Positions 6,872-53,083 of a stretch of 64,000 nt of DNA are shown here, piece after piece. How positions within the stretch are numbered: position 1 is the stretch's first letter; each line of letters starts with the position of its first letter. A program made the translations under genes and the position numbers. The DNA lies in the IMG/VR virus record IMGVR_UViG_3300036820_000012, positions 16,724 through 80,723 of that record. One strand, 5' to 3'. The DNA is from a virus. The notes under the pieces were generated by a model, which was not told the DNA's origin, did not search any database, and was given only the letters and a program-made list of their open reading frames with translations.

Positions 6872-7115
6872 CGGCCCGGTCATCCTCACCGCGTTCTGTC
6901 CGCCCGTCTGTGAGCACGGCCACGTCCTGCGTTACGGGGGCCGCAAGGACGCCAGGTTCCTGCCGAACAGAGTCACAGTCTCGTTCGCTACCTGCGACTG
7001 CCCGGCAGCCAGAGCGAAACCCGGTGCGTCAGGGCACATCGCCGTGCTCTGCCGCCGTTGCGAAGACGCAGGAGTTGAGACCTTGTTCTACGACCCTCCC
7101 CACGTTCCCGGTTAG
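6861..7115 (+). CDS. Hypothetical Cys-rich protein
   Basis: CEHGH...CDC...H..V.CRRC; converges on the GIY-YIG gene. Confidence 0.6.
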   Translation: MASDGPVILTAFCPPVCEHGHVLRYGGRKDARFLPNRVTVSFATCDCPAARAKPGASGHIAVLCRRCEDAGVETLFYDPPHVPG

Positions 7116-8527
7116 GGCGCGGGAGGGGCAGACCCCCAAAGTGCGTGGACCTCGGCCAGATAGTCGTCCGGGCTCATATGGTCAGGCTGGGCGAGGCCCC
7201 TGCGAACCAGCGCGCCGCTGATTGCCCGTGCCTCGATGACTCCGCGCCCTGACCAGTTGTAGTAGTCCGGGAGTGCGACGGCAGGCAACGTCTGCGCTGA
7301 GCGGTCGGCGGCCCGCCGGACCCCTACGCCAGCCGAATGCGGGCCGAGGCGCTCAACCAGCGCCTGGAGCACGCGGCCCGTAGTGCCCGCTGGCAGGCTG
7401 AGGCTGAGATCTAGGTCGCGGGCGACATCATTGCCGAAGGCCGAATCGAGCGCGCCCGGGTCCAGTTGCACGAGCAGATCGGCCATGGGCCGCGTCAGCA
7501 TGTGGTCTCTGGCAGCATCGCTCAGGACGCCCCCGACATTGGACCGGATGGCCGGTGCCGGGATCACGTCCGAATACGCGGCCGAAACTGCGCCGAGCAG
7601 GTAACCCGGGCCCTCTTCCCACGGTTTGCGGCCTACCGACAGCTTCGCCAGCATCCCATCACCACGGCCAGCCAGGAAGCCGAGCGCCTCTCTGACCGCA
7701 GCATCTTGGCCGGCCCACCTGGTGAAGGATGCGTCATCCATTGGCAGCCCTGCGAGTTCCGCCAGGTGTCGCCATGGGTCCACCGCCACCATGTACCAGA
7801 CGATCAGCGCCAGGAACTGGGAGGCGTCCTCGCGCCTGCCGCATGGCGTTTCTGACGCACGAGAGAAGTTGCGCTGCATCCGCGGGCCGAAGAAATCGTC
7901 GCTCATCCCGCGGACTTGCCCCCACGTCCGGCGCGTCTCGCGCCACAGGTACTCCGCCGCGCCGTCCTGCTCGCTGCTCAGGGCGCGCCAGAGTTCGTGC
8001 TTCCCGGCAGTCCTGGTCAGCGACCTCATGTACTCGTGGTGGCGTGGGCCCACTTTCGACATGAAGCGCCACGACACGTCCGGGATCGTGATCTCGGGCA
8101 GGTCGCCGGGCGGCACCGGGCCGCCCAGGACGGACATGGCGAGGTCGGCTAGTTCTGCCCAGCCCGCTCGCTCAGATGCTTTGCGTTCCGCGTCGTGGCG
8201 CTCGTACAGCAGCTCGCGCCCGAGTGCTGTCGCTTGTTCATTCAGGAGCGTGCCGCCCGCGGCGACGATGCGCGTGATCTCTTCGCTCTCGGCTACGAGA
8301 AGATCCCCTGCCGGTACGTCCTCCCGGATTGGGACCATCAGGGGCCTAAGCCCGGCGTTCCGCAATTCGGCTATCCAGGAGCGCACTCGCCGCGCATAGC
8401 TACCGCGCAGGCGCTCCGGGAGAGTCTTGGTGGTCTGGCCGATGTACTTCAACTGGTCGTCGCGCGGGTCAACGAGTCCGTAGACGGTGCCCGTGGCGGG
8501 GGGTGCCGCAGTTGTCGTCGCCATCAT
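7112..8527 (-). CDS. GIY-YIG nuclease domain fused to a large unknown helical domain
   Basis: VYGLVDPRDDQLKYIGQT...ER...E..I......LLN; ATGA-coupled to the recombinase gene. Confidence 0.75.
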   Translation of the reverse strand: MMATTTAAPPATGTVYGLVDPRDDQLKYIGQTTKTLPERLRGSYARRVRSWIAELRNAGLRPLMVPIREDVPAGDLLVAESEEITRIVAAGGTLLNEQATALGRELLYERHDAERKASERAGWAELADLAMSVLGGPVPPGDLPEITIPDVSWRFMSKVGPRHHEYMRSLTRTAGKHELWRALSSEQDGAAEYLWRETRRTWGQVRGMSDDFFGPRMQRNFSRASETPCGRREDASQFLALIVWYMVAVDPWRHLAELAGLPMDDASFTRWAGQDAAVREALGFLAGRGDGMLAKLSVGRKPWEEGPGYLLGAVSAAYSDVIPAPAIRSNVGGVLSDAARDHMLTRPMADLLVQLDPGALDSAFGNDVARDLDLSLSLPAGTTGRVLQALVERLGPHSAGVGVRRAADRSAQTLPAVALPDYYNWSGRGVIEARAISGALVRRGLAQPDHMSPDDYLAEVHALWGSAPPAP

Positions 8528-9177
8528 GCGTCCACGTGCGGCAGGTCGACGGCTTGCAGCGCCGCGATGGCCTCACGGTTGGTGAGGTGTGACAGATAGC
8601 GGTGGGTCACGGCGATGGATGAGTGGCCCAGCAACTTTGAAATCTGGGTCACCGGCACGCCTGCCGTCTCAAGCTCAGCCGCATAGGTGTGCCGCAGACC
8701 GTGGGGCGTCACCCGCTTTTCCACCCCCGCCTCTGCAGCGAGGCGGTGAAGCATCAGCCGCACATACTGGGCCCGTAGCGGGGAACCCCTGAGGGTGCAG
8801 AACAGCGGGCCCCGGATGCCCATGGCCTTCCGGGTGTCGATCCACCTTGCCACCGCGTCCGTGGCGCTCAGGTGGAAACCGCGAGTCGTGGCCACGTCGC
8901 CCTTGCCGTGAAGCACGCGGATGCTGTGCTCGCTCAGGCTGACGTCAGACACCTTGAGCGGGGGTATGTCCCGCCGGTCATCCCCGACCGCCTCCGCGAC
9001 CCGCAGCCCGGAGCGGTACAGCAGCATCAGGAGCGCGCGATTGCGGATACCTGTCGGTGCTGCGGCTGAGCAGCCCGCGATTATGGCCTGGACTTCATCG
9101 GTCGTCAGGACCTGGGGTGGGTACTTCTCACCCTTGTTGGCAGGCTCCTGGCCCTTCACCGAGCCAAACTGCACCAT
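8524..9177 (-). CDS. Short tyrosine recombinase (catalytic domain only)
   Basis: RNRALLMLLYRSGLRVAEA...GKG...HGLRHTYA...LLGHSSIAVTHRY; GGAGG RBS before ATG 9177. Confidence 0.92.
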   Translation of the reverse strand: MVQFGSVKGQEPANKGEKYPPQVLTTDEVQAIIAGCSAAAPTGIRNRALLMLLYRSGLRVAEAVGDDRRDIPPLKVSDVSLSEHSIRVLHGKGDVATTRGFHLSATDAVARWIDTRKAMGIRGPLFCTLRGSPLRAQYVRLMLHRLAAEAGVEKRVTPHGLRHTYAAELETAGVPVTQISKLLGHSSIAVTHRYLSHLTNREAIAALQAVDLPHVDA

Positions 9178-9213
9178 GCGGGTCCTCCCGGCCGGTTTAG
9201 AAGTGCTACTGCA

Positions 9214-9286
9214 CAGAAGCACTATCATTTCAGCCTGGAATCCAGCCCTCCACATGCCACGCCGCAGAAGCGCAACTATTTCGGCC
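9214..9286. repeat. Two 22-bp direct repeats CAGAAGC-N6-ATTTC-RGCC (candidate recombinase sites)
   Basis: 9214-9235 and 9265-9286, immediately upstream of the tyrosine recombinase. Confidence 0.55.
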
Positions 9287-10678
9287 CTACTCGCGCGGCT
9301 CTACCTTCACCGAATCGCGGTCAAAGCCAGGCCCGCGCCGAGCCGGCAAGATCGTGATGCGGAAGCTTGCCGCCACCAGCCCCCGCCGTGTAGCCAGCGG
9401 AAGCGCCTCCCACTCCTCCAGCGTGATCCCCTCGTACTGGGCCAGCAGCCGCCGTCCCGGTGTAGCTGCGATCCGCTCCCGCACCGCGGCGATGCGCTCG
9501 TCAAACGAGGCGATGGCCCGCACCGTCACTGCCGGGTCCAGCCCCGGATGGTCGGCCAGTGCCTCCAGCGACTTCTGAGCCGCAGCCTTCCGCTTCTCAA
9601 GGACGGTGATCTCTGACGCTGCTGCAGGCTCCGGGGCCTTGCGGACGAGCGCGGCCAGCTGGTCCGAGGACAGCCACTCCAGCATCCGTCCCACGATGTA
9701 GGCGTCGAGGTGGGCCACCGACCGGTGCAACTGTCGCTTGCACGCCGGGTTCACGCAGCCGTAGCCCAGGCGCAGGATGCCGGCCCGCCTGGTCTGGCGC
9801 GGGCCGGCTGGCTTGCCGCAGCTGCCGCACAGCGCGATACCTGAGAGCAGGTGCCGACGCTGGCCGGAGGCGTTCGCGTACCCGGCGGCCCGCCCGGCGA
9901 GCATGGCGCACGCCAGTTCCCAGTCGTCGCGCTCCAGCACCGGCTCCCACGCCGCTTTCTGCTCTCCGTCCGGCATCAGCCCGGCGTAGCGCGGGTTCGT
10001 CACCACACGGCGGATCCCGGCATGCGTCCACGCCTTGCCGGTGACGGTCGTCTCGCCGCGGCTGTTGAGGCTGGCGGCGATGATCCGTGTGCCTTCCCCG
10101 GCCAGCACGCGGCGGGCCATCTCCCGGATGAGCGCAGTTTCGGCCGGGACGTGGGTGACGCCGTCGCTGGTGAAGCCGTAGAACCGGCCGCCGGGGCCGC
10201 CGGGGCGCACGAGGCCCTCGCGCCGCATCCGGTCGTACTGGGTTTTCTTGCGCCGGGAGATGGTGTCGGACTCGTTGCAGGCGCGGGCGACTTCCCAGCG
10301 CATCATCATCCGGTGGTCGGGGTTGTCGAAGTCGTACTGCCCGGCGATGGAGGCCACGGTGATGTGCCGGCCGTCGCGCAGGTCGAGCAGGTCTTCGAGG
10401 TCGCGGGGCTGGCGGACGATCCGGTCGCCCCAGTAGCTGACGATCGCGGCTGCCTTGCCTGCGGCGACGTCGGCGAGCATCTGGTCCCAGGCGGGGCGCT
10501 TGCGGTTGCGTTTCCAGGCAGATTTTGAGTGGTCGGTGTAAACGCCGGCGATCTCCCAGCCGCGCTGCCGGCACAGTTCCCGGCACTGGCGTTCCTGGTC
10601 GTCGGTTTTCGTGGTGTCCTCAAGGGCGGCAAGGCTGATCCTGCAGTAGATTGCAGCGCGCAGGCGTGGCTTAGGCAC
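9287..10678 (-). CDS. int: Large serine recombinase (integrase)
   Basis: AAIYCRIS catalytic Ser motif, SAW..RPAW, DRIVR, recombinase domain NPRYAG, zinc ribbon LLSGIALCGSCG...YGC...C, coiled coil. Confidence 0.95.
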   Translation of the reverse strand: MPKPRLRAAIYCRISLAALEDTTKTDDQERQCRELCRQRGWEIAGVYTDHSKSAWKRNRKRPAWDQMLADVAAGKAAAIVSYWGDRIVRQPRDLEDLLDLRDGRHITVASIAGQYDFDNPDHRMMMRWEVARACNESDTISRRKKTQYDRMRREGLVRPGGPGGRFYGFTSDGVTHVPAETALIREMARRVLAGEGTRIIAASLNSRGETTVTGKAWTHAGIRRVVTNPRYAGLMPDGEQKAAWEPVLERDDWELACAMLAGRAAGYANASGQRRHLLSGIALCGSCGKPAGPRQTRRAGILRLGYGCVNPACKRQLHRSVAHLDAYIVGRMLEWLSSDQLAALVRKAPEPAAASEITVLEKRKAAAQKSLEALADHPGLDPAVTVRAIASFDERIAAVRERIAATPGRRLLAQYEGITLEEWEALPLATRRGLVAASFRITILPARRGPGFDRDSVKVEPRE

Positions 10679-10865: not shown

Positions 10866-11720
10866 GTGAGCCCGTCAAGACCTACGAGATACCGGATCCA
10901 GAGGAAGTCCCCGATGAGATTCCGCAGGAGGAGCCAGCCGAGCCCGTCCGCGAGCCCGGCGCCCCCGTCCCAGCGTGAGCCACCGGACCCGGAGAAGGAA
11001 GCAGCGGGGGAGATGTCCAAAGAGGTAGCGAAGCCAGGGCTTCCGCAGGAGCCCCGGCAGGACCCGATCCGCGCCCGGAAGGCCGCGTACCTGATGGCCA
11101 CCAATGAGCGCATCGGGTTCGGGCCGCTGACCCAGTCCGGCGTGATGTACGCCCCGGAAGGGGTGGCCGAGTGCCGGTGCGGTAGCTCCAGCGGCTACGT
11201 GCTGGCATCCGGTGGCAGCATCTCGGTGACACCGGGCACCTACTACGGCCTGGTCGCCAACAGCGGCGGCGGAGGCGGCTACCCGGTGGTCTACGGCGGC
11301 GGCGGTGGGGGGGGCTCGGCCTTCTATTACCCGGAGCCAGAGCCGGCCAAGCAGCACGGCCGGCCCGACCCCGACAACTCATGCGGGTTCTACGCCTGGA
11401 AAGCGGACAGCGACCTCCCGTGGCAGGTCGGCACATGGCTGCTGGAAGTTGACCTTTACGGGACCGTCATCGAGCACGAGAGCGGCTACCGCGCGCAGAA
11501 GCAGCGGGTCCTGTCCATCTCCCCGGTGCCGGGTTTCCTGTGCGACGAGCCCACGTCGCTGAGCGTCGATCGCGACAGCGGGCACCTGACGGCCCTTTGC
11601 CCAGCGTGCCCGTCACCAGCAGGCCACGTAGTCACCCCGGACCGCCTGCGCAGTTTCCTGAACGTGGAGGTCGACATGACCCGCGCGTGGCGGATGCGCA
11701 AGTCCGCGACCGCTCCGTAG
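10866..11720 (+). CDS. Hypothetical actinophage protein
   Basis: C-terminal CGFYAW...EVDLYGTVIEHESGYRAQ domain; start may be ATG 10914. Confidence 0.7.
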   Translation: MSPSRPTRYRIQRKSPMRFRRRSQPSPSASPAPPSQREPPDPEKEAAGEMSKEVAKPGLPQEPRQDPIRARKAAYLMATNERIGFGPLTQSGVMYAPEGVAECRCGSSSGYVLASGGSISVTPGTYYGLVANSGGGGGYPVVYGGGGGGGSAFYYPEPEPAKQHGRPDPDNSCGFYAWKADSDLPWQVGTWLLEVDLYGTVIEHESGYRAQKQRVLSISPVPGFLCDEPTSLSVDRDSGHLTALCPACPSPAGHVVTPDRLRSFLNVEVDMTRAWRMRKSATAP

Positions 11721-11843
11721 CCCGAAAGCTTCCCCGTAGCCCGCTCCACGGGGGGAACGCGCAACCGCCCGCGTGGCACGTGGCCTGAGGGCCGAGGGCG
11801 GGAAACGAAAGCTAGCTAGCTACGAAGTGAAAGCGAGATCTCT

Positions 11844-12551
11844 GTGAGATTCCCGAAGTTCCTTCCCACCCTGGCGGTCGTGGCGCCTGTCGTGGCTGCC
11901 GGCGCCCTGTCGGTAGCGATGGCAACGCCAGCGTCAGCCGCGGTGCACGGCGTGAAGCCGCAGGCCACCTCGGCGTGCGGCCATAAGTGCTTCGACCTGT
12001 CCAGCCTGCAGCTCGGGCCGGGCTTCATCCAGGACAAGTCCAACACGAAGGCCGGCCGGGTGATCCTGCGGATCGCCTCAAACACCTTCACCAACGAGGA
12101 CTTCATCGACCAGGCCGACGGGACGGTGGCCGACTACTGCACCACCGGCACGCCGTCGGCGCAGCAGTTCGCGTCGACCAGCTACATCTGCTCGCACTAC
12201 AGCGCGTTCCCGGTGTTCGAGGCGAACTTCGCGCCGGACACCAACGAGAGCGGCCTGTGCGCGGGCGTCTCGGCGCCGAACACCTCTGGCGCCAACGTCA
12301 AGATGATCGCCTGCGGCCAGACCACGGCGACGCTGTGGATCTCCGACATCGCTGACGGCACCTTCCACCACGGGCACCTGTACACCCCGTGGATCAACGG
12401 CGGCGACACGTCGTTCAGCCACCCCGAGATCATGACGCTGAACATGGGCACGAAGCCCGCGGATGAGCTCCAGCTTGAGCCGGAGAACACCACGGGCGGC
12501 GCGCTGCCGCTAACCCAGGAGTTCACGGAAGTGCAGGGTCCGGCATCCTGA
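11844..12551 (+). CDS. Secreted protein, possibly ricin-B/lectin-like
   Basis: Signal peptide ending ATPASA; CAGV....GANVKMIACG.....W motif. Confidence 0.7.
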   Translation: MRFPKFLPTLAVVAPVVAAGALSVAMATPASAAVHGVKPQATSACGHKCFDLSSLQLGPGFIQDKSNTKAGRVILRIASNTFTNEDFIDQADGTVADYCTTGTPSAQQFASTSYICSHYSAFPVFEANFAPDTNESGLCAGVSAPNTSGANVKMIACGQTTATLWISDIADGTFHHGHLYTPWINGGDTSFSHPEIMTLNMGTKPADELQLEPENTTGGALPLTQEFTEVQGPAS

Positions 12552-12709
12552 TCCGCTAGATGTGCCCGGTTCGCGCGGCCTTTGCTGCTGGGGGGTTCAG
12601 GCCGTGGACGTCCGGGCACCCGCGCAGGACTGGGGTCCTCCCCCGAGGCTCTGGTCCCGCGCCTGACGGGCGGCAGCCGTCCCGCGCATGAGGCGGCTGT
12701 AGCCCCCGG

Positions 12710-12749
12710 CCCCCGGCAGTCTGGTGCTCCAGGCCCAGACTGCCGGGGG
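12710..12749. terminator. 15-bp stem hairpin
   Basis: CCCCCGGCAGTCTGG / CCAGACTGCCGGGGG. Confidence 0.55.
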
Positions 12750-12778
12750 CTCTCGTATCCCAATCGGCAGGAGAAGCG

Positions 12779-12943
12779 ATGGGACTGCTGAGGCGTAAAC
12801 GCGGCAAGCCCGAACCCGAGGCTGGCGAAGACCGCAGCGAAGAGGAAGCCGAAGTCCGCGAGGTTGGCGAGCCCGACCCGTCCAAGGTGACGGTTCGCAA
12901 GGACACTGTGACTGGCCGCTGGGCCAGCCTGAAGGGCATGTGA
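12779..12943 (+). CDS. 54-aa hypothetical protein (below ORF-track cutoff)
   Basis: AGGAG RBS, MGLLRRKRGKPEPE...LKGM stop. Confidence 0.55.
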   Translation: MGLLRRKRGKPEPEAGEDRSEEEAEVREVGEPDPSKVTVRKDTVTGRWASLKGM

Positions 12944-12949
12944 TCCGCC

Positions 12950-13201
12950 GTGGACGATGACGCCGTGATCACGCTGACCAGGACGGCGGCCGGCCAGTTC
13001 CAGGTCACCGTAGACGGGGACGGGGCGCCTGACGTGATCGACCTCTGGCTGTCGGTGTCTGCTGAGTCGCATCCTTCAGCGGCATCCATCGGCCTGACCC
13101 GGATGAGGGTCGAGGGCGATGACCTGTGGAAGGCGGAGCAGCACTTCGAGGTCACCGAGGTCACGATGACAGTCAAGGGGAAGCGCTACCCGCGGCACTA
13201 G
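12950..13201 (+). CDS. Hypothetical protein
   Basis: Follows the 54-aa ORF, ends at the terminator. Confidence 0.6.
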   Translation: MDDDAVITLTRTAAGQFQVTVDGDGAPDVIDLWLSVSAESHPSAASIGLTRMRVEGDDLWKAEQHFEVTEVTMTVKGKRYPRH

Positions 13202-13213
13202 TCCGGGCACACG

Positions 13214-13260
13214 AAAAAAGCCGCTCGCCGCACCACCCATTAGGGCAGTGCGGCGAGCGG
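13214..13260 (-). terminator. Intrinsic terminator at the end of the late/lysis operon
   Basis: CCGCTCGCCGCAC / GTGCGGCGAGCGG stem followed by U6 on the - strand. Confidence 0.85.
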
Positions 13261-13322
13261 TTATGGCGTCAGCGCCGAGTGTCGCAAGCAGGGATCAGGC
13301 TAGCAGGGCGCGGCGACAGTCC

Positions 13323-13826
13323 TCACCAGGTCCCCAGGAGCAGCGACGTATCGTAGGCCGCTGTCATGCCGCCGGCGTACTGCTGAGCCCAGACGTGGGC
13401 CGGGTCAAGCGTGACGTGGTAGCGGGTGGCCATCTCCGCGAGCTCGGCTGCGGTGCGCTGCACGCCGTCGAGCGTTGCAAGCCACCAGCGCACGTTGGCC
13501 AGTCCCTGCAGCCGCGCGGCTGCGAGGGCGAGGTTGGCGAAGCTCGTGTAGCAGCGGGCGAGGTTGCCGGCCGCGAGGCGCCCTTGCGCCCAGGCACGCA
13601 GCGCAGCCGGGTCCTCGAAGCTCTCGTTACCCGGCTCGAAGTCGCATGCGCCCGCTCTGGCTGCGACGGCCTGCCCGGCGAGCACGGTGTTCCACCGGAC
13701 GTGCGGGATCGCCTTCACCTGCTCGGCGGTGGCTGCGTAGCGGCCGTCGACATACGGGATGGCGTACTGGGTGCCTGCCGGGAAGTGCTCGCTCGCTGCG
13801 TCGTAGACGCGGATGATCTCGGTCAC
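13323..13826 (-). CDS. Putative endolysin (GH25/DUF1906-like catalytic domain)
   Basis: YDA...Y.DG...DFEPGN...CYTS...WWLA..DG...AQQY.....YDTSL; last gene of the membrane-protein cassette. Confidence 0.6.
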   Translation of the reverse strand: MTEIIRVYDAASEHFPAGTQYAIPYVDGRYAATAEQVKAIPHVRWNTVLAGQAVAARAGACDFEPGNESFEDPAALRAWAQGRLAAGNLARCYTSFANLALAAARLQGLANVRWWLATLDGVQRTAAELAEMATRYHVTLDPAHVWAQQYAGGMTAAYDTSLLLGTW

Positions 13827-14302
13827 GGCTGGCGCTCCTTCGGGTCACGCAGCTTGCGGGAGTCGGTCACCGTTGGCTCGCTGGGCGGCCCGGCTCGCTC
13901 GTCGCGGGTGGCGAGTCTCTCGCTGGTGCCGTTCGGCTTCGCTGGCCTGCGCGCTGGGGGCATCACGGCCAGTCCCTTGTGGTGCTCCGCGAGCCGTTCT
14001 TCCAGGTGCCGCTTGATGCGTCCTTCGGCCTTGTCGACGTGGGTCGCTGTCAACCCGCTGGTAAAGAGGGAGAAGCTGGCGCCAAAGAGCGGGACCACCG
14101 ACAGGCACTCGCCGGCGTTGACTATGTGCGCCCAGACGCCCACCGGGGTCACGTCCCCGCCGAGGGTCACGGCGTTGGCTAGCGCGTTGTAGAGCCCGTC
14201 CCAGACGCCGATGTGCATGGCTGCCGAGTAGGCGATGCCGAGCCCTGCGTCGAGCACCAGGGCGCTGGCGATCACCAGCAGGGCAACCCGGTGGTGCCTC
14301 AC
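13823..14302 (-). CDS. Two-TM potassium-channel-like (KcsA fold) protein with altered filter
   Basis: WDGLYNALANAVTLG-GDVTPVGVWAHIV...FG aligns with the KcsA pore helix, filter and M2. Confidence 0.75.
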   Translation of the reverse strand: MRHHRVALLVIASALVLDAGLGIAYSAAMHIGVWDGLYNALANAVTLGGDVTPVGVWAHIVNAGECLSVVPLFGASFSLFTSGLTATHVDKAEGRIKRHLEERLAEHHKGLAVMPPARRPAKPNGTSERLATRDERAGPPSEPTVTDSRKLRDPKERQP

Positions 14303-14400
14303 ACCCGCTCTCGCAGGAGAGCTATCAGTTCGTCAAGCTTGTCCTCGAGCGTCTCCTCTGGCCGCGCGTCCTCGTGGTGGCGGTTGCACCACGCGGAAAT
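14299..14400 (-). pseudogene. Orphan 3' end of a gene next to the HNH insertion
   Basis: WCNRHHEDARPEETLEDKLDELIALLRERV stop; GTGA-coupled to the channel-like gene. Confidence 0.5.
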
Positions 14401-14414
14401 GGTAGGATCATCAC

Positions 14415-14870
14415 ATGCCCGAGTGGAATCCATGCAGCGTTGAGACCTGCGGCAGGCTCGCTCAGAGCAGCGGTGGCCGGTTTTGCTCGAAGCACCTTTC
14501 CCGCTTCCGCAAGCATGGAGATCCGCTGTTTGAGCGGAGGCCGGGACGTCCTGACAAGCACGGCCATGCGAAGCGCAGGGGTAAGGGCGCGGTACGGCCT
14601 CCCACTCGCGAGTACGTGACTTGGTGCGCGATGAAGGCGCGCTGTCAGAGCACGGCGTGCAAAGACTGGCCCCGGTATGGCGCCCGTGGGATATCAGTGT
14701 GCGAACGCTGGCAAGTCTTCGAGAACTTCCTGGCCGATATGGGTACGCGCCCGGCAGGCATGACACTTGACCGGATTGATGGTGACGGTAACTACGAGCC
14801 CGGTAACTGCAGGTGGGCAACGTACGCCAAGCAGCGGGCCAACCAGCGCCGGACGCGGCGCTCCGGCTGA
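14415..14870 (+). CDS. HNH-type homing endonuclease
   Basis: YVTWCAMKARC....WPRYGARGISVCERW..FENFLADMG.RP...TLDRIDGDGNYEPGNCRWAT; TAGGAT 6 nt before ATG. Confidence 0.9.
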   Translation: MPEWNPCSVETCGRLAQSSGGRFCSKHLSRFRKHGDPLFERRPGRPDKHGHAKRRGKGAVRPPTREYVTWCAMKARCQSTACKDWPRYGARGISVCERWQVFENFLADMGTRPAGMTLDRIDGDGNYEPGNCRWATYAKQRANQRRTRRSG

Positions 14871-14899
14871 TAAGTGGCGCTATCGCGCTGCCGACTGGG

Positions 14900-15259
14900 C
14901 TATGCATGATCGTCATGCCACCTCTTGATGTGGCTGTGGCTAACGTTGCCGTGCCTGACCTCATCTGCTGGGTGATGCCTGCGGCACACGCGAAAGGCCC
15001 CCCCGGCTACGTGGTAGCGGCCTACTCTCATGCACCTGTCAACATGACAGTTCACGGAATGCCACAGGCCGGTGATGATCGTGGACATGCCGACGATGGA
15101 GACAATGGCGGGCACAGAGCCGGACCACGCCGAATAGTTGTCCGAGGTCTGGCCGTCCCAGCCGAGGAAGTGCAGCAGGACGCGGTCAAAGACGCAGACG
15201 TAGGTGATGGCCAGGGCAACCAGGAGGAAGACGATCAGCAGGCGCAGCGGCCGTCTCAC
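14900..15259 (-). CDS. Membrane protein with Cys/His-rich tail (lysis cassette)
   Basis: 2 TM then NCHVDRCMRVG...VCRRHHP. Confidence 0.7.
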   Translation of the reverse strand: MRRPLRLLIVFLLVALAITYVCVFDRVLLHFLGWDGQTSDNYSAWSGSVPAIVSIVGMSTIITGLWHSVNCHVDRCMRVGRYHVAGGAFRVCRRHHPADEVRHGNVSHSHIKRWHDDHA

Positions 15260-15417
15260 GCCGGCGGCGTCCTGCGGAACGGCCAGACAGCCCAGACAAG
15301 GTGCGCGGCGATGCAGAGCCAGCCGAGGATCTCGGCGTCGCTGACGTACTTGCCGACCCCGGCGACGTGGAGGATAAACGCTACAGCGAAGGCGATGATG
15401 GCCAAGATCGCGAACAT
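15256..15417 (-). CDS. 53-aa two-TM protein, candidate holin
   Basis: MFAILAIIAFAVAFILHVAGVGKYVSDAEILGWLCIAAHLVWAVWPFRRTPPA; GAGGGG RBS; GTGA overlap. Confidence 0.6.
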   Translation of the reverse strand: MFAILAIIAFAVAFILHVAGVGKYVSDAEILGWLCIAAHLVWAVWPFRRTPPA

Positions 15418-15439
15418 GGCTAGCCCCTCTCAGGGATGG

Positions 15440-15901
15440 TCACTTGCGCCCCAACGCGGCACAGTTGCGAGGCGCGTACGTCTTCGCCAGATAGGCCTTG
15501 AACGACCGCTCGAAAACCCGGGCCGCCTGCGTCTTCGGCTCTCCGAGGTCGCCCAGGAGGGTGTCCCAGACGCCGATGGTCTGGCGCCTGCTGGTGTTGC
15601 TGGCCTCGCACAGGGCCTTGTTGCTGGCGTAGGCGTGCTGGGCGGTCGCCGTGGCCCTCGTCGCCCGGCTGCTGGCGTCCGTGGCCTGGTTGCTGGCGTC
15701 GTGTGCCTGCACGGCGACCAGGCCGAGGATGATCGTCAGGGCCACGTCCACGCACAGCGAGACCGCCAGGGCGATGATGATGTGCCGGGACCGGCGCACG
15801 CGGCCGTTGAGCCGCTCAAGCTCAGCCCGGACGCCGCCCAGCGCCTCGGTGAGGCCTCTTGCCGTGTTCAGTGCTTCGCGGTCCGGGGTCGGCTCGGTCA
15901 C
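15440..15901 (-). CDS. Single-TM coiled-coil protein (lysis cassette)
   Basis: TM flanked by helical regions with two Cys in the C-terminal part. Confidence 0.7.
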   Translation of the reverse strand: MTEPTPDREALNTARGLTEALGGVRAELERLNGRVRRSRHIIIALAVSLCVDVALTIILGLVAVQAHDASNQATDASSRATRATATAQHAYASNKALCEASNTSRRQTIGVWDTLLGDLGEPKTQAARVFERSFKAYLAKTYAPRNCAALGRK

Positions 15902-16083
15902 TGCGGCACCAGCCTTTCCTGGGCGTCATCGCCGGGCGGCGCCGCCGGGCGCGTGAGGATCTCGTTCATCGCGGCGACGTTGCCTTCGAGCCGGGCCAGC
16001 AGCGCATCTAGCTCGGCGGCGACCCGGCGCACTTCGGCGTCCTTGTCCTTAGCCACCAGGACTCCCTGCGGGATCGCCATCAT
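15898..16083 (-). CDS. Small coiled-coil protein
   Basis: Overlap chain. Confidence 0.6.
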   Translation of the reverse strand: MMAIPQGVLVAKDKDAEVRRVAAELDALLARLEGNVAAMNEILTRPAAPPGDDAQERLVPQ

Positions 16084-16312
16084 CGAGGAGAGCGGCCAGG
16101 CTTCCGAGCAGGTAGGCGACCCTGGCCGCCTGGGCGATGGCGTCAGTGGCGAGCTGGCGGATCTCGTCCGGCGTCATGTCCGCTCCCGAGGTCATGGCCA
16201 TCTGGGCTATCTCGGATGCCTGCGGGGCGTGCGCGGCCCGTTCCTGGACGCGGGCAGCGATCACGCGGGCTTCGTCCGAGATGTCATCGTCGCGGCCTGC
16301 GGTCGATGGCAC
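16049..16312 (-). CDS. Hypothetical protein
   Basis: GGGAGG RBS, overlap chain. Confidence 0.6.
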   Translation of the reverse strand: MPSTAGRDDDISDEARVIAARVQERAAHAPQASEIAQMAMTSGADMTPDEIRQLATDAIAQAARVAYLLGSLAALLDDGDPAGSPGG

Positions 16313-16703
16313 GGCGGTCCTCCCGGTCGCGAATCAGCTCCTGCAAGACCGGCAGCAGGCTTCCCGTGGCGGCCGTAAATTGCCCGAGCAGCGGGACCAG
16401 TTGCTGGACGGCGAAGTCGCGGGCGTCATCCCGCTGCCGCTCGGCTTCGGCCTTCTCGGCGATGAGCCGCTTGTTCTCCTCCATCAGGTCGGCCCGCGCC
16501 TGTTCCCTGGCCTCGTCGACGGCCTTGCCGGGAACGATGACGCGCATCGTGTAGAGGACGACGCCGATCCCGAGTGGCCCGAAGCCCAGCACGTAGGTCG
16601 TGATATCGCCCGCTACCGAGGAGAGCGGGGAGATGTTGCCGCCCGTCGCCATGAGCCACGGGGCAGCGGCGGGGAGGCCCGATGCAAGATAAGCCAGCCA
16701 CAT
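16284..16703 (-). CDS. Membrane plus coiled-coil protein (lysis cassette)
   Basis: GPLGIGVVLYTMRVIVPG TM followed by coiled coil; GGAGG RBS. Confidence 0.7.
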   Translation of the reverse strand: MWLAYLASGLPAAAPWLMATGGNISPLSSVAGDITTYVLGFGPLGIGVVLYTMRVIVPGKAVDEAREQARADLMEENKRLIAEKAEAERQRDDARDFAVQQLVPLLGQFTAATGSLLPVLQELIRDREDRRAIDRRPRR

Positions 16704-16847
16704 TCGCCGCCTCCTCGCCAGGGTTTGCCGCCTCCCGGCGAGGGGGTGTGGGTGCTTGTTTCGGCTCAGCCAGCCGCCGGTCCTTGTCCGGACCGCGCTA
16801 GCGTAGCACGAGGAAGCAAACTCGTCATATCGGCACTTCTTAGCCCT

Positions 16848-16961
16848 CTGACCTGCGGTGTTGTCGCGGATTTGCGACAGCGTTCCGAAGCGTTCCGATG
16901 TCAGGATGTCGCAGAATTGCGACAGTCACTGACCTGCGGGTTTGTCGCAGAATTCCGACAG
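16848..16961. repeat. Palindromic operator/iteron-like array
   Basis: TGTCGCRGAWTTSCGACAG at 16862, 16907, 16943; CTGACCTGCGG at 16848, 16929. Confidence 0.85.
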
Positions 16962-17387
16962 CTGATCTCGTATCCGGTAGCGGCTCGTGCGGTCAATCCC
17001 GAGTTTGTCCATCGCGGCATTCCGGCCCATGCCAGCCATCTCGAGGAGCGCCACCTTGAGGGCGGTCGCCGGGATGCCCGACAGCGCCAGGGCGGTGAGG
17101 TCGTCGGCGCTCATGGCCGCTCGCCGCTGCGATGGCTTCTTGCCCGTGACGCAGTCCGGCAGCAGGTCCCGCAGCGCGGCTGTCACGACGTCCTGCGGGC
17201 ACGGGTCGCCGCAGTGGCACTTCCACAGCAGCCCTTTGCCCTTGACCGTCAGCGACAGTCCTGGCTTGCCGTGGACCGGGCACCAGCCGTCCCACTGCTG
17301 ACCCGCGCGGGTGCAGCGGAGATGGAGTGGGGCTATCTCACACCAGTGCTGGACAACGCACTCAGCGGCATCGCGTCCGCAGTGCAC
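16926..17387 (-). CDS. Primase-type zinc-binding domain fused to C-terminal HTH
   Basis: CPVHGKPGLSL....LLWKCHCG..C....V..AL; AMDKLGIDRTSRYRIR. Confidence 0.65.
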   Translation of the reverse strand: MHCGRDAAECVVQHWCEIAPLHLRCTRAGQQWDGWCPVHGKPGLSLTVKGKGLLWKCHCGDPCPQDVVTAALRDLLPDCVTGKKPSQRRAAMSADDLTALALSGIPATALKVALLEMAGMGRNAAMDKLGIDRTSRYRIRDQLSEFCDKPAGQ

Positions 17388-17681
17388 GGGGCGGCTACGC
17401 GGCGGGAGAAGGGGAGGCTATCGAGAGGGGCGCCCGCGCGAGGGCAGGCGCAAAAGGTATCGTGCTCATGGGCTTCACCGTGTTCTTAGCGGAGGCGGTG
17501 TGGTCAAGTCCCTGGCGGTGGCCGAGAATCCATCGCTGGGGGCGTTTTAAGTTGTGCCGACCACAATAGCGGATAGTCGCTACCTGATCACTGGCGGTCG
17601 AAAAGCTGACCGATAGCGCTCTCGTTAGCGCTTACCCGATTACCCGACGTGACGGAGTGGTGACCGGTAGGGTCTGCGGGC

Positions 17682-17888
17682 ATGACCAACGGGGGATGGT
17701 TAGCAAGAAGGCGCCGGCGGCAGGCCGCGTGGTGCGTGACCGGGTTCGGTGCCCTCTGCTTCAGCGCGGCGCTCGTCCTTTACGCAGCCCGGGTGATCTC
17801 GCGTGAAGGTGCGATGGCGGTCACTGAACTGGCTGTGCTCGTGGTGCTGGGAGGTGCCCGGTGTGCGTACCTGTGGCGCCGTCAGTGA
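17682..17888 (+). CDS. Small two-TM membrane protein (moron)
   Basis: Two hydrophobic helices; TAGGGT 8 nt before ATG. Confidence 0.6.
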   Translation: MTNGGWLARRRRRQAAWCVTGFGALCFSAALVLYAARVISREGAMAVTELAVLVVLGGARCAYLWRRQ

Positions 17889-17896
17889 CCAGGCGC

Positions 17897-20800
17897 CTAG
17901 GTATTGATCCCGGTGGCCCGGCACTTCTCCACCCAGTACGTGCCGTTGTAGATGAACGTGACCGAGTCGGTGTAGTTCGCCGTCGCGGTCGCTGACGGAG
18001 CCGAAGCGCCGGCGAACTTGCACGCCGTCGGCCACGCGTAGGTGCGTGACCCGGTGGCGTCCTGAATCCACTGGATGGTCAGTTCCTGCCCGGTCACGGG
18101 GTTGGTGATGGACGAACTGGTTGCGTTCGCCTCCAGGGTGACGGCCTGGACGTTGCCGTTGTTCGCGTTGATCGTGACCGCGCCGTTTGAGGCCAGCGTC
18201 TGGGTGGCGATGAGGTCAGCGACGCCGCCGCCGAACACGGTCTGCGCGGCGTTGCAGGTGATCGGGTTCAAACTCTCGCTGCCGTTGTAGAGCCTGAACG
18301 GGATGCCGCCGCCCGAGCTGTATGCAAGCCCGAGACCCCATGACACGTCACTGCTGAGCCACACCGCTATGCGCCTGTTGTCGGTGCCGTCGTTCTGGTA
18401 GGCGGTGAACCCGACCGTGCCCGCCGCGCTTTCCGTCGTGACGCTGAACTGGCCCTGCTGCAGTGGCAGCGCGGTGTTCCTCGGGGGCGCGCCGTTGACG
18501 TACATGTATGACGGGACGATCACGCCATAGCCGGGGTCAATAACCTGGCAAGTCGTCCCGGACGTGTCGGTGTAGTTTGCGACGCTGCTGTCGACGTAGA
18601 GCGGGCCGATGATGTAGTTGTAGTTGCTGTCAGCGTCAGTGGTCCAGCCGGTCGCGTTCGCCTCGAACCGGCAGCCGTCGATCACGTTGCCGGTGCTGTT
18701 GCCGCCAGAGCCTCCGGTCGAGGTCATCGCCACGCCGGTCGTGTTGGACTCGAACTGGCAGCCGAGGAACTGGTTCTGGTTGGAGTCGGCTATCGCCACG
18801 CCCGTCGTGCCGCCGCTGCCCCGGCAGCCCATGAGGGTGTTGGAGTTGGAGCCTTCCCCGCCGATCTGCCAGCCGGTGCCGTTGCCGATGGAGTCGACGT
18901 TCTGGAACCGGTTGTAGACGCAGCCGCCATCGGTCGTGGAGGTGAGGCTGACACCGGTCCCGAAATCGGTGACCAGGACGTCCTTGACGGTGGCCGCGCT
19001 GCGGCTGTTGAGGTCCAGGCCGATCGTCGCGTTGCCGGAGTCGGCGCCGTAGAGCTCAAAGCCTTCCAGGTGCCCGAACGTGATCAGCGTGCCGGGGCTC
19101 GGGTTGGCGAACGCGGAGCCGGAGGTGATCGTGGAGTGGAACTTGGTGACGTCCTCACCCTGGCCGGTGATGGAGATGCCCTGCGCCCAGTTGATGGTTG
19201 TGAACGCGAACGTCCCGGCCCCGGCGGTGATCATCCCGGGGCTGCCGCCGAGGGCGGAGATGGCCCCGGCGAGGGTGGCTTTCGCCGACCCCCAGGACAG
19301 CCCGTCGCCGGTGTCGCTGGCATAGGCGTCCGACGACAGGTAGATCACCGCGTCAGCGGAGGTGCCCTTGGCCGCGTACGGGACCGTGACCACGCCGTAG
19401 GCGTCGTCGATCTCCGTTGCGGCGGCGGATGAGCCGCGGTAGTAGGTGACGCGGTTGGTTGAGGCGTCGTTGAAGATCCCGTAGACGTTGACGTGGGCCG
19501 GGGCCTGCCCGGCGAACCCGGCGGAGATCGTCCCCGAGCCCGAGGAGAGGGTGACGCCGGTCAGCGTCGTCGAGGTCGTGCCGGTGTAGGCGAGCACCGC
19601 GGTGCCTGCGGAGGTGGGGACCGTGACCGTGCCGGAGCCAGCGAAAACTGATGTGGGAGAGGTGTTGCGGAGGGTTCCCTGGAGGGTCAGCGTCGTGACC
19701 GAGGACACGTTCAGGCCCACGGAGGCGGAGGCCAGGACGGCCTGGGCCTGCACGGTTCCCGTCGTGCAGGTCAGCACCGGCCCGATCGTCCCGGTGCTGT
19801 ACCCGGACGGCAGCCAGACCGCGCCGGCGTGGCCGAGGGTGTCCCACGCGTCGGTGACGGTGTTCGCCCCGATGGTGAAGCCGTCGTTGTCGTGGTAGAG
19901 GCAGATCCCCGCCGGGCCGCAGCCGTGGACCGTGTTCCCGGTGATCACCAGGCTCTGGGTGGCGAACGCGGTGATGCCGCCCTCGGTGACCGTCGACTCG
20001 TAGGGCTGCCCGTAGCCGGTGACCTCGTTCCCGGTCACCGAGCACCCGGTGGCCGGGTCAGTGGGTGACCCGGTGGTGACGATGGCGCCGGAGACGACGA
20101 TCCCGTATGTCCCCTGCCCGGCGCCGAGCGCCCCGATGTCGGCGACGTTCCCGGTGATCTTGACCCGGTGGGGGCCGGTGACGGGCGTGCTGGCGGTGTC
20201 GTGCTGGGCGCCGACCTGAATGGCGAGGTTGCAGCCCTGGACGATGTTGTTCGCGATCGTGACGTTGGTCCCGGCGTGCATGTCGATGCCGGTCCAGATT
20301 GCAACATTGGTGACCGTGTTGCCGGTGATGGCGATGTTCTCGCACACCGGGTCGATGGAGCCGACGCCGAGGATCGCTTCCGACAGGCTGATCCCGTAGC
20401 AGTCCGTGGAGTTCGAGGACGACCCGGTGATGTTGTTCACCCGGTTATCCGCTATCTGCCCGGTGGCCACGCTGAGGTAGACGCAGCCCGCGTACTGGAT
20501 GTCGTAGATGTCGTTATCGGCGACCACAACATCGTTCGCGTACTGCGCGTACACGCCGTAGGCGCCCCAGCTTGAGATCGCGGCGTGGCGGATGCGGATG
20601 AAGCTGATGTAGGACGAGGACGATGCGCCGGTTACCTTGATCGCTGACTCTGATGCGTGGTAGGCGGCGTACTGCGGGCCGGTGAGCGCGGGGCCGTCCC
20701 AGGTGAACCCGCCTGCGGTGACCAGCACGCCCGCCGTGTTGGAGGTGACCTGGATGATCGTGGCGCTGCCGTAGAAGGCCAGGGATTTGCTGACCGTCAG

Positions 20801-21556
20801 CGCGGTGTCGATGTAGTACGGGGCGCTGGCGTTCAGCGTGATGGCGCTCCCCGCCGGGGCCGCGCTGATGAGGGCCGACAGCGCGGCGTAATCGGTTGCC
20901 CCGGAGGTGTCGTTACTGGGCGCGGGGACCGCCACGCCCGTGCCGCCGCTGCCCGTCGCCAGTGTGGAACTCAGCCCCGCTGCGGTCCCGGAAGTGCTCG
21001 CGGCATTGGCCGGGATGTCGGCGGAGACGAGCCCGCGGAACGACGGTGCGCCAGTGCCGCCGCTCCCTGGCCCGGCGAAGATCTCGTTCTGCGGCGCGCC
21101 GGTTTCCGTTCCGGTGCCGCCCTGGTTTACGGGCAGCGCGGCTGTCAGGTGGGTGCTGACCACGGCGGGAACGGCGGTGGTGCCGCCGAGATCCCCGGCG
21201 AGCTGCACGGTGCCCGAGGTGCCGCTTTCGAGGGCCGCGATGGCTGCGGTGTTCGCCTGGATCAGCGCCGGCTCATAGCCGGTTGTGCCGTGCTCGACCT
21301 GCGCGCCCGCGTTGTGCGCCTGCTGCGTGGTTCCGTCTATCCCGCGGGTGCAGGGGAGGGTGTACGGGCCGGTCCCGGTCGGGGCTGAGGTGACCAGGAT
21401 CGCTTCCTGCGCCGACGTGCCCCAGTCGATCAGGACAGGAAAGGGATATTCCGTCGGCCACGTTCCGGGCAGGTTCAGCACCGAGGGATTCCCGCTGGCC
21501 CCGAGGGCCGAAGACAGGACTGTCGGGAGCGCTGTGCTGACGTAATACCGGGTCAC
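17897..21556 (-). CDS. Tailspike/receptor-binding protein with right-handed beta-helix domains
   Basis: N-terminal TRGIDGTT.QAH.AGA.V.H anchor; repeated ITGNTV/GCQFESN rungs in two blocks. Confidence 0.85.
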   Translation of the reverse strand: MTRYYVSTALPTVLSSALGASGNPSVLNLPGTWPTEYPFPVLIDWGTSAQEAILVTSAPTGTGPYTLPCTRGIDGTTQQAHNAGAQVEHGTTGYEPALIQANTAAIAALESGTSGTVQLAGDLGGTTAVPAVVSTHLTAALPVNQGGTGTETGAPQNEIFAGPGSGGTGAPSFRGLVSADIPANAASTSGTAAGLSSTLATGSGGTGVAVPAPSNDTSGATDYAALSALISAAPAGSAITLNASAPYYIDTALTVSKSLAFYGSATIIQVTSNTAGVLVTAGGFTWDGPALTGPQYAAYHASESAIKVTGASSSSYISFIRIRHAAISSWGAYGVYAQYANDVVVADNDIYDIQYAGCVYLSVATGQIADNRVNNITGSSSNSTDCYGISLSEAILGVGSIDPVCENIAITGNTVTNVAIWTGIDMHAGTNVTIANNIVQGCNLAIQVGAQHDTASTPVTGPHRVKITGNVADIGALGAGQGTYGIVVSGAIVTTGSPTDPATGCSVTGNEVTGYGQPYESTVTEGGITAFATQSLVITGNTVHGCGPAGICLYHDNDGFTIGANTVTDAWDTLGHAGAVWLPSGYSTGTIGPVLTCTTGTVQAQAVLASASVGLNVSSVTTLTLQGTLRNTSPTSVFAGSGTVTVPTSAGTAVLAYTGTTSTTLTGVTLSSGSGTISAGFAGQAPAHVNVYGIFNDASTNRVTYYRGSSAAATEIDDAYGVVTVPYAAKGTSADAVIYLSSDAYASDTGDGLSWGSAKATLAGAISALGGSPGMITAGAGTFAFTTINWAQGISITGQGEDVTKFHSTITSGSAFANPSPGTLITFGHLEGFELYGADSGNATIGLDLNSRSAATVKDVLVTDFGTGVSLTSTTDGGCVYNRFQNVDSIGNGTGWQIGGEGSNSNTLMGCRGSGGTTGVAIADSNQNQFLGCQFESNTTGVAMTSTGGSGGNSTGNVIDGCRFEANATGWTTDADSNYNYIIGPLYVDSSVANYTDTSGTTCQVIDPGYGVIVPSYMYVNGAPPRNTALPLQQGQFSVTTESAAGTVGFTAYQNDGTDNRRIAVWLSSDVSWGLGLAYSSGGGIPFRLYNGSESLNPITCNAAQTVFGGGVADLIATQTLASNGAVTINANNGNVQAVTLEANATSSSITNPVTGQELTIQWIQDATGSRTYAWPTACKFAGASAPSATATANYTDSVTFIYNGTYWVEKCRATGINT

Positions 21557-32333: not shown

Positions 32334-32633
32334 GTGAGCATGAAAGCCGAGTGCCCGGCCTGCAAGGCGTATCTCTCCGGCGTCTGGGACGCGATGGAGT
32401 ACGGCGGTGCCTGCCCGAGTTGCGGACTGCCAGGGACCGCCATCGCCGATGTCTACGCAGCGCGCAAGACGAACGCCGAGAAGGAACTACTCGCCAAGTA
32501 CGAGGAGGCGGTCATCCGCGCGGGGAGGGCTGAAGCCGAGCGAGATATGCTGCGCGGCCACCTTGAGGCCATTGACTCCGAGATGCGCGTCTGGCAGGCG
32601 GATGAAAAGCACCTGGCGAAGGCCGAGGGCTAA
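32334..32633 (+). CDS. Zinc-ribbon plus coiled-coil protein (antisense moron)
   Basis: CPAC...CPSC; TACGCT 7 nt before GTG. Confidence 0.7.
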   Translation: MSMKAECPACKAYLSGVWDAMEYGGACPSCGLPGTAIADVYAARKTNAEKELLAKYEEAVIRAGRAEAERDMLRGHLEAIDSEMRVWQADEKHLAKAEG

Positions 32634-47437: not shown

Positions 47438-47545
47438 GCTGAAGTCCTTCCGGTTGAGATCTGGATCGGTGCGACCGTCTCCGCCGGAAGGCACCACGGC
47501 ATGAGCGCGTGGCGGTCAGGTGAAACTCAGGGATGAAGCCCGGGT

Positions 47546-52888: not shown

Positions 52889-53083
52889 TCACCCCGCCTC
52901 GTGGATCTCCGTCCAGCCGGCCGGGTACTGGTGGCCGCCTGCCGGGTGGGACGTGACCGCGAACATCAGCGATGTCCCGCGCTCAGCCAGTCGCGTGTTC
53001 ACCTTGTCGACCAGGCGGCGTGCCTGCTCAATGTCGGCGTAGTCCTCGGCGGTGGGGCTGGAGTCAGGTGGCGGCTGGCTCAT
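52889..53083 (-). CDS. Hypothetical protein
   Basis: ATGA overlap with portal. Confidence 0.55.
   Translation of the reverse strand: MSQPPPDSSPTAEDYADIEQARRLVDKVNTRLAERGTSLMFAVTSHPAGGHQYPAGWTEIHEAG

Follow-up and report, generated by a model that had tools for sequence, protein, structure and literature searches.

A shortened-filter pore-loop channel in the late operon of an uncultured soil phage

The channel gene and its place in the late operon

The window analysed here is a 64,000-nucleotide stretch (positions 16,724 to 80,723) of the 80.7-kb IMG/VR viral contig IMGVR_UViG_3300036820_000012, which comes from a soil metagenome and has a GC content of ∼68%. It encodes a two-transmembrane (2-TM) pore-loop channel protein with a shortened selectivity filter. 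The channel gene is the second-to-last in the late (virion and lysis) operon, between the gene for a small membrane protein, g119, and the gene for a muramidase with a GH25 fold (Table 1). Read along the minus strand, the genes run from terminase through portal, capsid, tape measure, tail fibre, small TM proteins, g119, channel and GH25-fold gene to the terminator, with start/stop overlaps. The channel stop codon overlaps the GTG start of the muramidase open reading frame (ORF) and reads as tcac at 13823–13826 on the plus strand. An earlier note on this DNA, made from its letters alone, had described this coupling to a putative endolysin and had placed the channel in a lysis cassette. Both descriptions stand: the coupled neighbour has a GH25 fold in its structural model, and the genes close the late operon at its 3′ end, downstream of the tail fibre and a number of small membrane genes. 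A very strong terminator-like hairpin marks the end of the operon; since it follows the GH25-fold gene, the channel sits at the late operon end, in the position of a lysis cassette. A search of 50,697 deposited phage genomes found no match to the channel and the muramidase, either as DNA or as protein.

Table 1. Positions of the channel, its neighbours and other features in the window (loci labelled L are those of the locus survey)
Feature	Position	Strand	Remarks
2-TM pore-loop channel protein, 159 aa	13823..14302	-	GTG start; GC content at third codon positions (GC3) 0.88
Filter codons ACC CTC GGC GGG GAC (T46-L-G-G-D50)	14153..14167	-	read from sequence
Compact GH25-fold muramidase, 167 aa, likely endolysin	13323..13826	-	GTG start overlaps channel stop (GTGA)
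Intrinsic-terminator-like hairpin	13221..13260	-	18-bp stem, 14 G-C pairs, T run; ∼60 nt past muramidase stop
Recombination module common with L002	13206..14009	-	L002:8282-9085; 803 nt ungapped, 87-100% DNA identity
Orphan 3′ end of original g119 gene (WCNRHHEDARPEETLEDKLDELIALLRERV + stop)	14299..14391	-	still GTGA-coupled to channel start
Antisense HNH endonuclease gene, between g119 and channel	14415..14870	+	phrog_374, E 5.7e-37
g119, 2-TM membrane protein	14900..15259	-	conserved partner of the channel
53-aa protein, two hydrophobic segments, candidate small holin	15256..15417	-	from sequence
153-aa single-TM protein, lysis-proximal membrane gene set	15440..15901	-	homologue in L003
139-aa TM and coiled-coil protein	16284..16703	-	BLAST homologue in L003
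Beta-helix tail fibre	17897-21556	-	late operon
Tape measure	32630-36673	-	late operon
Major head protein	46061-47497	-	late operon
Portal	53080-54645	-	late operon
Large terminase	54718-56250	-	PHROGs
Short tyrosine integrase/recombinase	8524-9255
Large serine recombinase (Resolvase, Recombinase, Zn_ribbon_recom domains)	9287-10678

A pore of the KcsA/NaK type

The gene product belongs to the superfamily of tetrameric 2-TM pore-loop cation channels, of the KcsA/NaK type. A profile built from 33 homologues matches full-length KcsA (E 7e-8) and, at E≤1, 181 channel sequences in the PDB. The Pfam search that the earlier note had proposed gives a divided answer: the window protein on its own falls under the Ion_trans_2 (PF07885) cut-off of 22.5 bits (11.4 bits, E 0.31), while nine of the 33 homologues, at 40–57% identity, pass it individually with a best E of 1.9e-15. 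PHROGs gave no match for the channel. Searches for the family found 52 clusters in a collection clustered at 90% and, at E≤1e-3, 130 representatives in a library clustered at 50%.

An AlphaFold2 (AF2) model of the monomer, with a mean predicted local distance difference test score (pLDDT) of 82.8, has helices at residues 2–29, 33–45 and 56–111 and a coil at 46–55. These correspond to TM1 (2–29), the pore helix (33–45), the filter TLGGD (46–50) and TM2 continued by a cytoplasmic helix (56–111), followed by a disordered tail (112–159). The model superposes on the pores of KcsA, NaK and MthK with Z 10.3–11.3 over residues 2–96, and on open KcsA with a root-mean-square deviation (rmsd) of 1.4–1.5 Å over 88 residues, a resemblance far above chance. 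The top Foldseek and VIA matches are all pore-loop channels (rmsd 1.4–3.3 Å over 88–95 residues), a few glutamate-receptor pores among those from Foldseek. The earlier note had recognised a KcsA-like order of TM, pore helix, filter and second TM, and both the family profile and the model agree with it. By homology, the protein would be expected to form a homotetramer around a central pore.

The best sequence-profile match is KcsA, the pH-gated K+ channel of Streptomyces lividans (3EFF, 1K4C, 5VK6), which has the same 2-TM/pore-helix/filter plan and a C-terminal cytoplasmic helix. Both proteins carry charged or histidine residues at the two membrane–cytoplasm edges. Unlike KcsA, the phage channel, known here from sequence and model, has TLG-GD in place of TVGYGD, is encoded in a late operon and is paired with g119. 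Structurally, the nearest neighbours include NaK of Bacillus cereus and mutants of it with shortened filters, namely C-DI (7OOR/7PA0/8AYP), S-ELM (7OQ1) and the CNG mimics (3K03/3K0D/4ZBM), at Z 11.0–11.3. These mutants keep only the inner T-V/L-G part of the filter. Their identity to the phage channel is only 12–14%, their filters are engineered whereas the phage filter is natural and conserved, and the outer residue is Cys in the mutants but Gly in the phage.

The channel family is found in uncultured high-GC soil phages. A single relative was detected among 185,579 representative genomes, on contig JAJZWH010000039.1 of a metagenome-assembled genome (L026), where no g119 lies upstream. This contig has a GC content of 35%, so the family extends well beyond high-GC hosts. 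The earlier note had called the channel domesticated, which is unproven: canonical GYGD and short filters coexist in one phage-borne family, and the representative genomes supplied just that one relative.

A shortened and inherited selectivity filter

The filter lacks one residue at the position of the K+ channel tyrosine. The HMMER alignment to KcsA leaves a one-column gap exactly there (G.gd against GyGD), and in the family alignment relatives that are 50–57% identical to the window channel have TTVGYGD where it has VTLG-GD. The one-residue deletion that the earlier note had read from the letters is thus present in both alignments. With V-T-L-G-G-D and a gap at the tyrosine, the window channel does not carry the K+ signature TxGYG/TxGFG, and its residues equivalent to KcsA W68, E71 and T74 are N, A and V.

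Short filters are common in the family. Among 177 cluster representatives, 62 (the window channel included) have the G-GD form, 48 have GYGD, 32 have a GC form such as TVGCD, and 35 carry other rewritten loops (TSGNSP, TAGAD, TSGSS and more). The GC filters are equal in length to G-GD, and the proteins that carry them were confirmed as members of the same family. Within the window subgroup, LANAVTLGGD is invariant in 16 sequences that are 46–75% identical to the window channel. Filter types also follow descent. On a FastTree phylogeny built from 102 columns with the filter columns removed, in which the deep forks are weak, the four filter types require 26 changes, where shuffled labels require 88 on average, and short versus GYGD filters require only 5.

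The pore helix varies together with the filter. In KcsA, W68 packs against the filter tyrosine. The equivalent position is aromatic in 48 of 49 GYGD members, 2 of 62 G-GD members and none of the 32 GC members. At the T74-equivalent position Thr or Ser gives way to Val or Ile in the short-filter proteins, and the Thr that forms site S4 is kept in all filter types. Because the short filter co-varies with loss of the aromatic at the W68 position, it reflects a coordinated remodelling of the outer filter, not decay. The comparison of sequences indicates that the short filter is old, inherited within lineages and selected. A decayed pseudo-channel was considered as the principal explanation and rejected, since within its clade the short filter never varies, and across the family it changes together with the pore helix.

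Studies of NaK suggest what such a filter might do. NaK has sites S3 and S4 only and is non-selective, and K+ selectivity needs four sites (PMC9822992). In the engineered NaK C-DI filter, which is one residue shorter, K+ is retained at S3/S4 and monovalent cations pass (bioRxiv 10.1101/2022.08.08.502946). The GC variant of the family, TVGCD, matches the filter of this mutant (TTVGCDI) in sequence, and the TLGGD of the window channel is of equal length. By analogy with these short-filter results, poor cation selectivity can reasonably be expected of the window channel.

A channel that mainly conducts or prefers K+ is distinctly unlikely, although parts of the family evidence lean towards it. 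Such a channel would manage K+, turgor or membrane potential late in infection, either as an antiholin-like delay or by releasing K+ and so lowering turgor. TVGYGD is kept in 48 of the 177 representatives, the nine homologues that pass Ion_trans_2 point the same way, the S4-forming Thr is universal, and the NaK C-DI crystals had K+ rather than Na+ at S3/S4. There is also a viral precedent. The chlorovirus channel Kcv is a virus K+ channel that changes host membrane potential and K+ content. Kcv and its relatives Kesv and Kmpv of chloroviruses and phycodnaviruses, compared here at the superfamily level, are virus-encoded minimal 2-TM pores of ∼80–125 residues that change the host membrane potential. 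Unlike the phage channel, the Kcv-type proteins keep GYG or GFG, belong to eukaryotic giant viruses, reside in the virion internal membrane and act at entry. The phage channel, in contrast, is encoded by a tailed phage in a late, lysis-type position, and it has a shortened filter and a dedicated partner gene. Against K+ preference stand two points: the window filter is without the residue and the aromatic partner that the S1/S2 layer requires, and two contiguous sites make a non-selective pore (PMC9822992).

The partner protein g119 and a probable homing event

A survey of the channel's neighbours singles out g119 as its partner. Hidden Markov model searches were run on six-frame translations of 47 loci from viral and metagenomic contigs; the neighbouring ORFs were called by a crude GC3-based method, so counts of neighbours are approximate and the low-GC loci L008, L014, L016 and L026 are poorly annotated. 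In all loci with upstream DNA except L012 and L026, the gene immediately before the channel is a g119 homologue in the same orientation, usually with a stop/start overlap. The earlier note had looked to a neighbourhood survey to tie the channel to lysis genes. A hydrolase does lie downstream in about a quarter of the distinct loci, but the family-wide partner is g119 and not the endolysin.

The g119 protein has two TM segments, an external loop that is highly conserved (GWDGQTSDNYAAWSG) and, on the cytoplasmic side, a Cys/His motif resembling a zinc finger (NCH-x3-C...C-x-RHH) in which C71, C76 and C92 are invariant and H95 nearly so. Searches of Pfam, PHROGs and PDB sequence profiles linked it to no known family and to no relative of solved structure. 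It also occurs without the channel. In L050 (5552-6498) a g119 homologue directly overlaps a mini-GH25 gene, and in L059 (4959-5476), on a contig of 47% GC, there are two short tandem paralogues. Because the g119 homologue of the channel-less L050 abuts a GH25-like gene, g119 itself belongs to lysis cassettes.

In the window, g119 and the channel are separated by the antisense HNH endonuclease gene. The orphan g119 end left beside the channel (30 codons, 14302-14391) is 74% identical to the C-terminus of the g119 homologue P0213 (E 6e-15). The present 3′ part of g119 is a replacement tail from a different allele that arrived with the HNH insertion. Since the working g119 ends in another allele's tail, the insertion inside the g119 3′ part (14299-14964) looks like a homing event that co-converted its flanks. 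An HNH homologue with 46% identity occupies the same g119/channel junction, on the channel's strand, in an unrelated metagenome contig (L039:665-1060). The g119/channel junction may be a recurrent homing site.

The muramidase and the lysis cassette

The gene downstream of the channel encodes what its model indicates to be a shortened, divergent form of GH25. No match was found for the protein in Pfam at E≤1 (Glyco_hydro_25 and Rv2525c_GlyHyd-like included), in PHROGs or in PDB sequence-profile searches. The fold is more telling. In its AF2 model (pLDDT 94.1) the top 17 VIA matches are all GH25 lysozymes and phage endolysins or Rv2525c-like proteins, at Z 9.5–12.2 over 136–152 residues, against Z 7.9 or less for the best unrelated TIM barrel. 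D9, D62-x-E64 and D159 do not vary among 27 homologues, and the model places them at the ends of strands in GH25 order. Muramidase homologues on five other viral contigs directly follow tail-fibre genes amid small TM proteins, the expected place for an endolysin. The mini-GH25 gene was also considered as the channel family's conserved neighbour and rejected; beyond the window its profile adjoins the channel only in L002.

The muramidase begins MTEIIRVYDAASEHFPAGTQY, without a hydrophobic stretch, and residues 5–9 already form strand 1 of the barrel in the AF2 model. Neither an N-terminal signal nor a signal-arrest-release (SAR) segment was found in its sequence; it therefore needs a hole-forming holin. 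An ion channel cannot export it. This bears on the pinholin-like role that the earlier note had suggested for the channel. Pinholins and holin/antiholin pairs (S21-68/S21-71; mycobacteriophage LysF1a/LysF1b) are likewise small late membrane proteins beside an endolysin in two-component arrangements, and they collapse the proton-motive force and set the time of lysis. The phage channel, however, has no relation to them in sequence or fold, and pinholins pair with SAR endolysins. Nor can a tetrameric pore-loop channel let an 18-kDa enzyme through by itself. A pinholin role in the strict sense was accordingly rejected on the grounds that the GH25-like protein lacks a SAR or signal segment.

Other membrane proteins are encoded just upstream of g119. 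For the 53-aa protein with two hydrophobic segments no family match was found in Pfam or PHROGs; its equivalent place in L003 is held by a 57-aa protein of similar make-up but without a BLAST match to it. The 139-aa coiled-coil protein has a TM-segment motif in common, as judged by eye, with a 109-aa protein upstream of the endolysin in L050.

Recombination has reshaped the cassette within the channel gene itself. The module common with L002 comprises the channel C-terminal domain from about codon 98, the muramidase gene and the terminator. Upstream of it, the channel cores of the window and L002 are unrelated in DNA and carry different filters (TLGGD against TSGCN). As the module begins inside the channel gene, the cytoplasmic tail of the channel travels with the endolysin, and the pore cores are exchangeable. 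This mobility would also suit a non-conducting membrane protein that serves as a scaffold or regulator, either by binding g119 or by holding the muramidase through its C-terminal tail: the domain from about residue 98 moves with the GH25-like gene independently of the pore core, and the family's filters are highly variable (TSGNSP, TAGAD, TSGSS). We nonetheless consider a scaffold very improbable, because each filter class strongly conserves its pore helix, Thr-x-Gly core, TM2 and PLF(G/A)A, as a working pore would, and the filter types are stably inherited.

Beyond the late operon, the serine and tyrosine recombinases lie side by side within 7112-10678 of the window, and their presence indicates that the phage is temperate. 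The hairpin at the end of the late operon faces a plus-strand gene block (10866-13201) that adjoins these integrases. No tRNA genes were found within the 64-kb window. The ORF at 47546-49429, like the channel and the muramidase, had no match in the 50,697 deposited phage genomes.

A proposed role in lysis timing

We tentatively propose, at slightly less than even confidence, that the protein is a poorly selective cation channel that would depolarise the membrane and thereby trigger or time holin-dependent lysis, by analogy with the short-filter NaK mutants and with known lysis systems. Late in infection, the tetramer would form in the cytoplasmic membrane, with g119 as a probable companion. 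The channel would keep the inner Thr of the S3/S4-type sites and be without the outer S1/S2 layer, and its opening would dissipate the membrane potential. Loss of the proton-motive force is the classic trigger of holins and serves as the usual diagnostic for them, those of mycobacteriophages included (PMC13056207). The channel would then act as trigger or timer for (i) a true hole-forming holin, for which the 53-aa 2-TM protein and/or g119 are candidates, and (ii) through it, the release of the signal-less muramidase once that holin has fired. The position of the channel agrees with the holin/lysis-timing class, being that of a late membrane protein in a lysis cassette.

How such a channel would open can be guessed at from KcsA. 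A conserved His/Arg motif (HHR) lies at the N-terminal membrane edge and a cluster of E93, R95 and H99 follows TM2. Because these residues lie at the place of the KcsA pH sensor, gating by cytoplasmic acidification is conceivable, as pure speculation. A fuller scheme, which we regard as rather improbable, would make g119 and the channel a hitherto unrecognised two-component lysis clock of actinobacterial-type phages. Here a zinc-finger holin or sensor would work with a gated channel whose filters (GYGD, G-GD, GCD, TSGNS and others) have been swapped repeatedly to tune ion flow. A clamped potential would delay lysis, its collapse would trigger it, and acid opening like that of KcsA may make triggering all-or-none.

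Genomic contexts across the family

One contextual link to lysis is the slot directly after the g119–channel pair. In six distinct locus types the gene there encodes a wall hydrolase, of five different kinds in all: mini-GH25 (the window and L002), Amidase_2 (L003), GH25 by Pfam (L029, E 2.5e-23), a PG_binding_1 protein (L016) and an Rv2525c-like hydrolase (L038-L043).

Several observations weigh against a depolarising role in lysis. Hydrolases adjoin only ∼1/4 of the distinct loci, and most have no recognisable lysis enzyme next to the g119–channel pair. The pair is flanked by the head-tail adaptor and tail terminator genes in L009, L015 and L020, and it lies before a conserved 135-aa gene and virion-type genes in L021-L025, and before terminase or portal genes in L004, L011, L012, L027 and L035. 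In one phage the pair (L025) is ∼17 kb from the GH25-like gene (L052) on the same contig. Phage D29 offers a precedent, with lysis regulators encoded outside the lysis cassette (bioRxiv 10.64898/2026.08.27.747656); a scattered location is therefore compatible with a role in lysis, although it still weakens the case. In the window, the HNH insertion uncoupled the translation of the channel from that of g119. One depolarising role does not account for every member either, since roughly one in four has a canonical K+ filter and would clamp the membrane potential instead of collapsing it. Finally, since the phage has other holin-like genes, the channel may be dispensable.

The same scatter can be read in another way. 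The g119–channel pair might be a mobile two-gene membrane cassette (a moron) serving superinfection exclusion, which the earlier note had also raised, or host takeover, outside the lysis machinery. Altered potential or ion content would block the injection of incoming DNA, or the channel would be a RexB-type effector gated by its zinc-finger partner. We hold this unlikely, though a real possibility. The pair keeps its order and overlap across lysis cassettes, head-tail joining regions and pre-terminase positions, HNH homing has struck its internal junction in two loci, channel cores have been swapped by recombination, and the phage is temperate, with serine and tyrosine recombinases. However, the pair lies on the late strand in the window and most loci, with codon overlaps with late genes. 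No sigma-70-like sites were found in 12500-18000, so the pair has no promoter-like site of its own, and it is located outside the immunity and integration region, the usual place of lysogen-expressed exclusion genes. The five different wall hydrolases in the slot directly after the pair also speak against a moron.

Other genes recur around the pair. A small multi-TM protein of 112–180 residues resembling VIT1 (Pfam VIT1, best E 2.1e-7; L005 E 3e-4) is encoded just upstream of it at L005:7097-7597, L048:6866-7405, L025:7127-7570 and L023:17-352, and may be a third membrane component beside g119 and the channel. Some of the loci before terminase or portal genes have a weak Phage_holin_2 match beside the pair. 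A few genes upstream, among virion genes, are proteins of 217–266 residues with a Lys/Ala-rich N-terminus and a conserved Cys/His C-terminal domain (L005:5474-6127, L020:6127-6870, L022:2232-3029). In L005 and L022 the next gene encodes a 348–385-aa protein, the L005 copy having a weak GH26-like match. These recurrent proteins upstream of the pair in L005, L020 and L022 may be unrecognised lysis enzymes.

Outlook

The literature searched contained no account of channels of this kind in tailed phages. How phages of Gram-positive high-GC hosts time lysis is poorly understood, and the first event that lowers the membrane potential before the holin fires is a gap in current accounts. A natural pore-loop channel wired into lysis cassettes would be a concrete, testable candidate for the trigger of holin firing. 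The family is, moreover, a natural experiment in filter evolution, with canonical, shortened and rewritten filters on one 100-residue scaffold at 40–60% identity. Among them is TVGCD, the same filter that was built into NaK by design as a mimic of glutamate receptors. As minimal channel proteins, its members are attractive subjects for studies of structure and selectivity.

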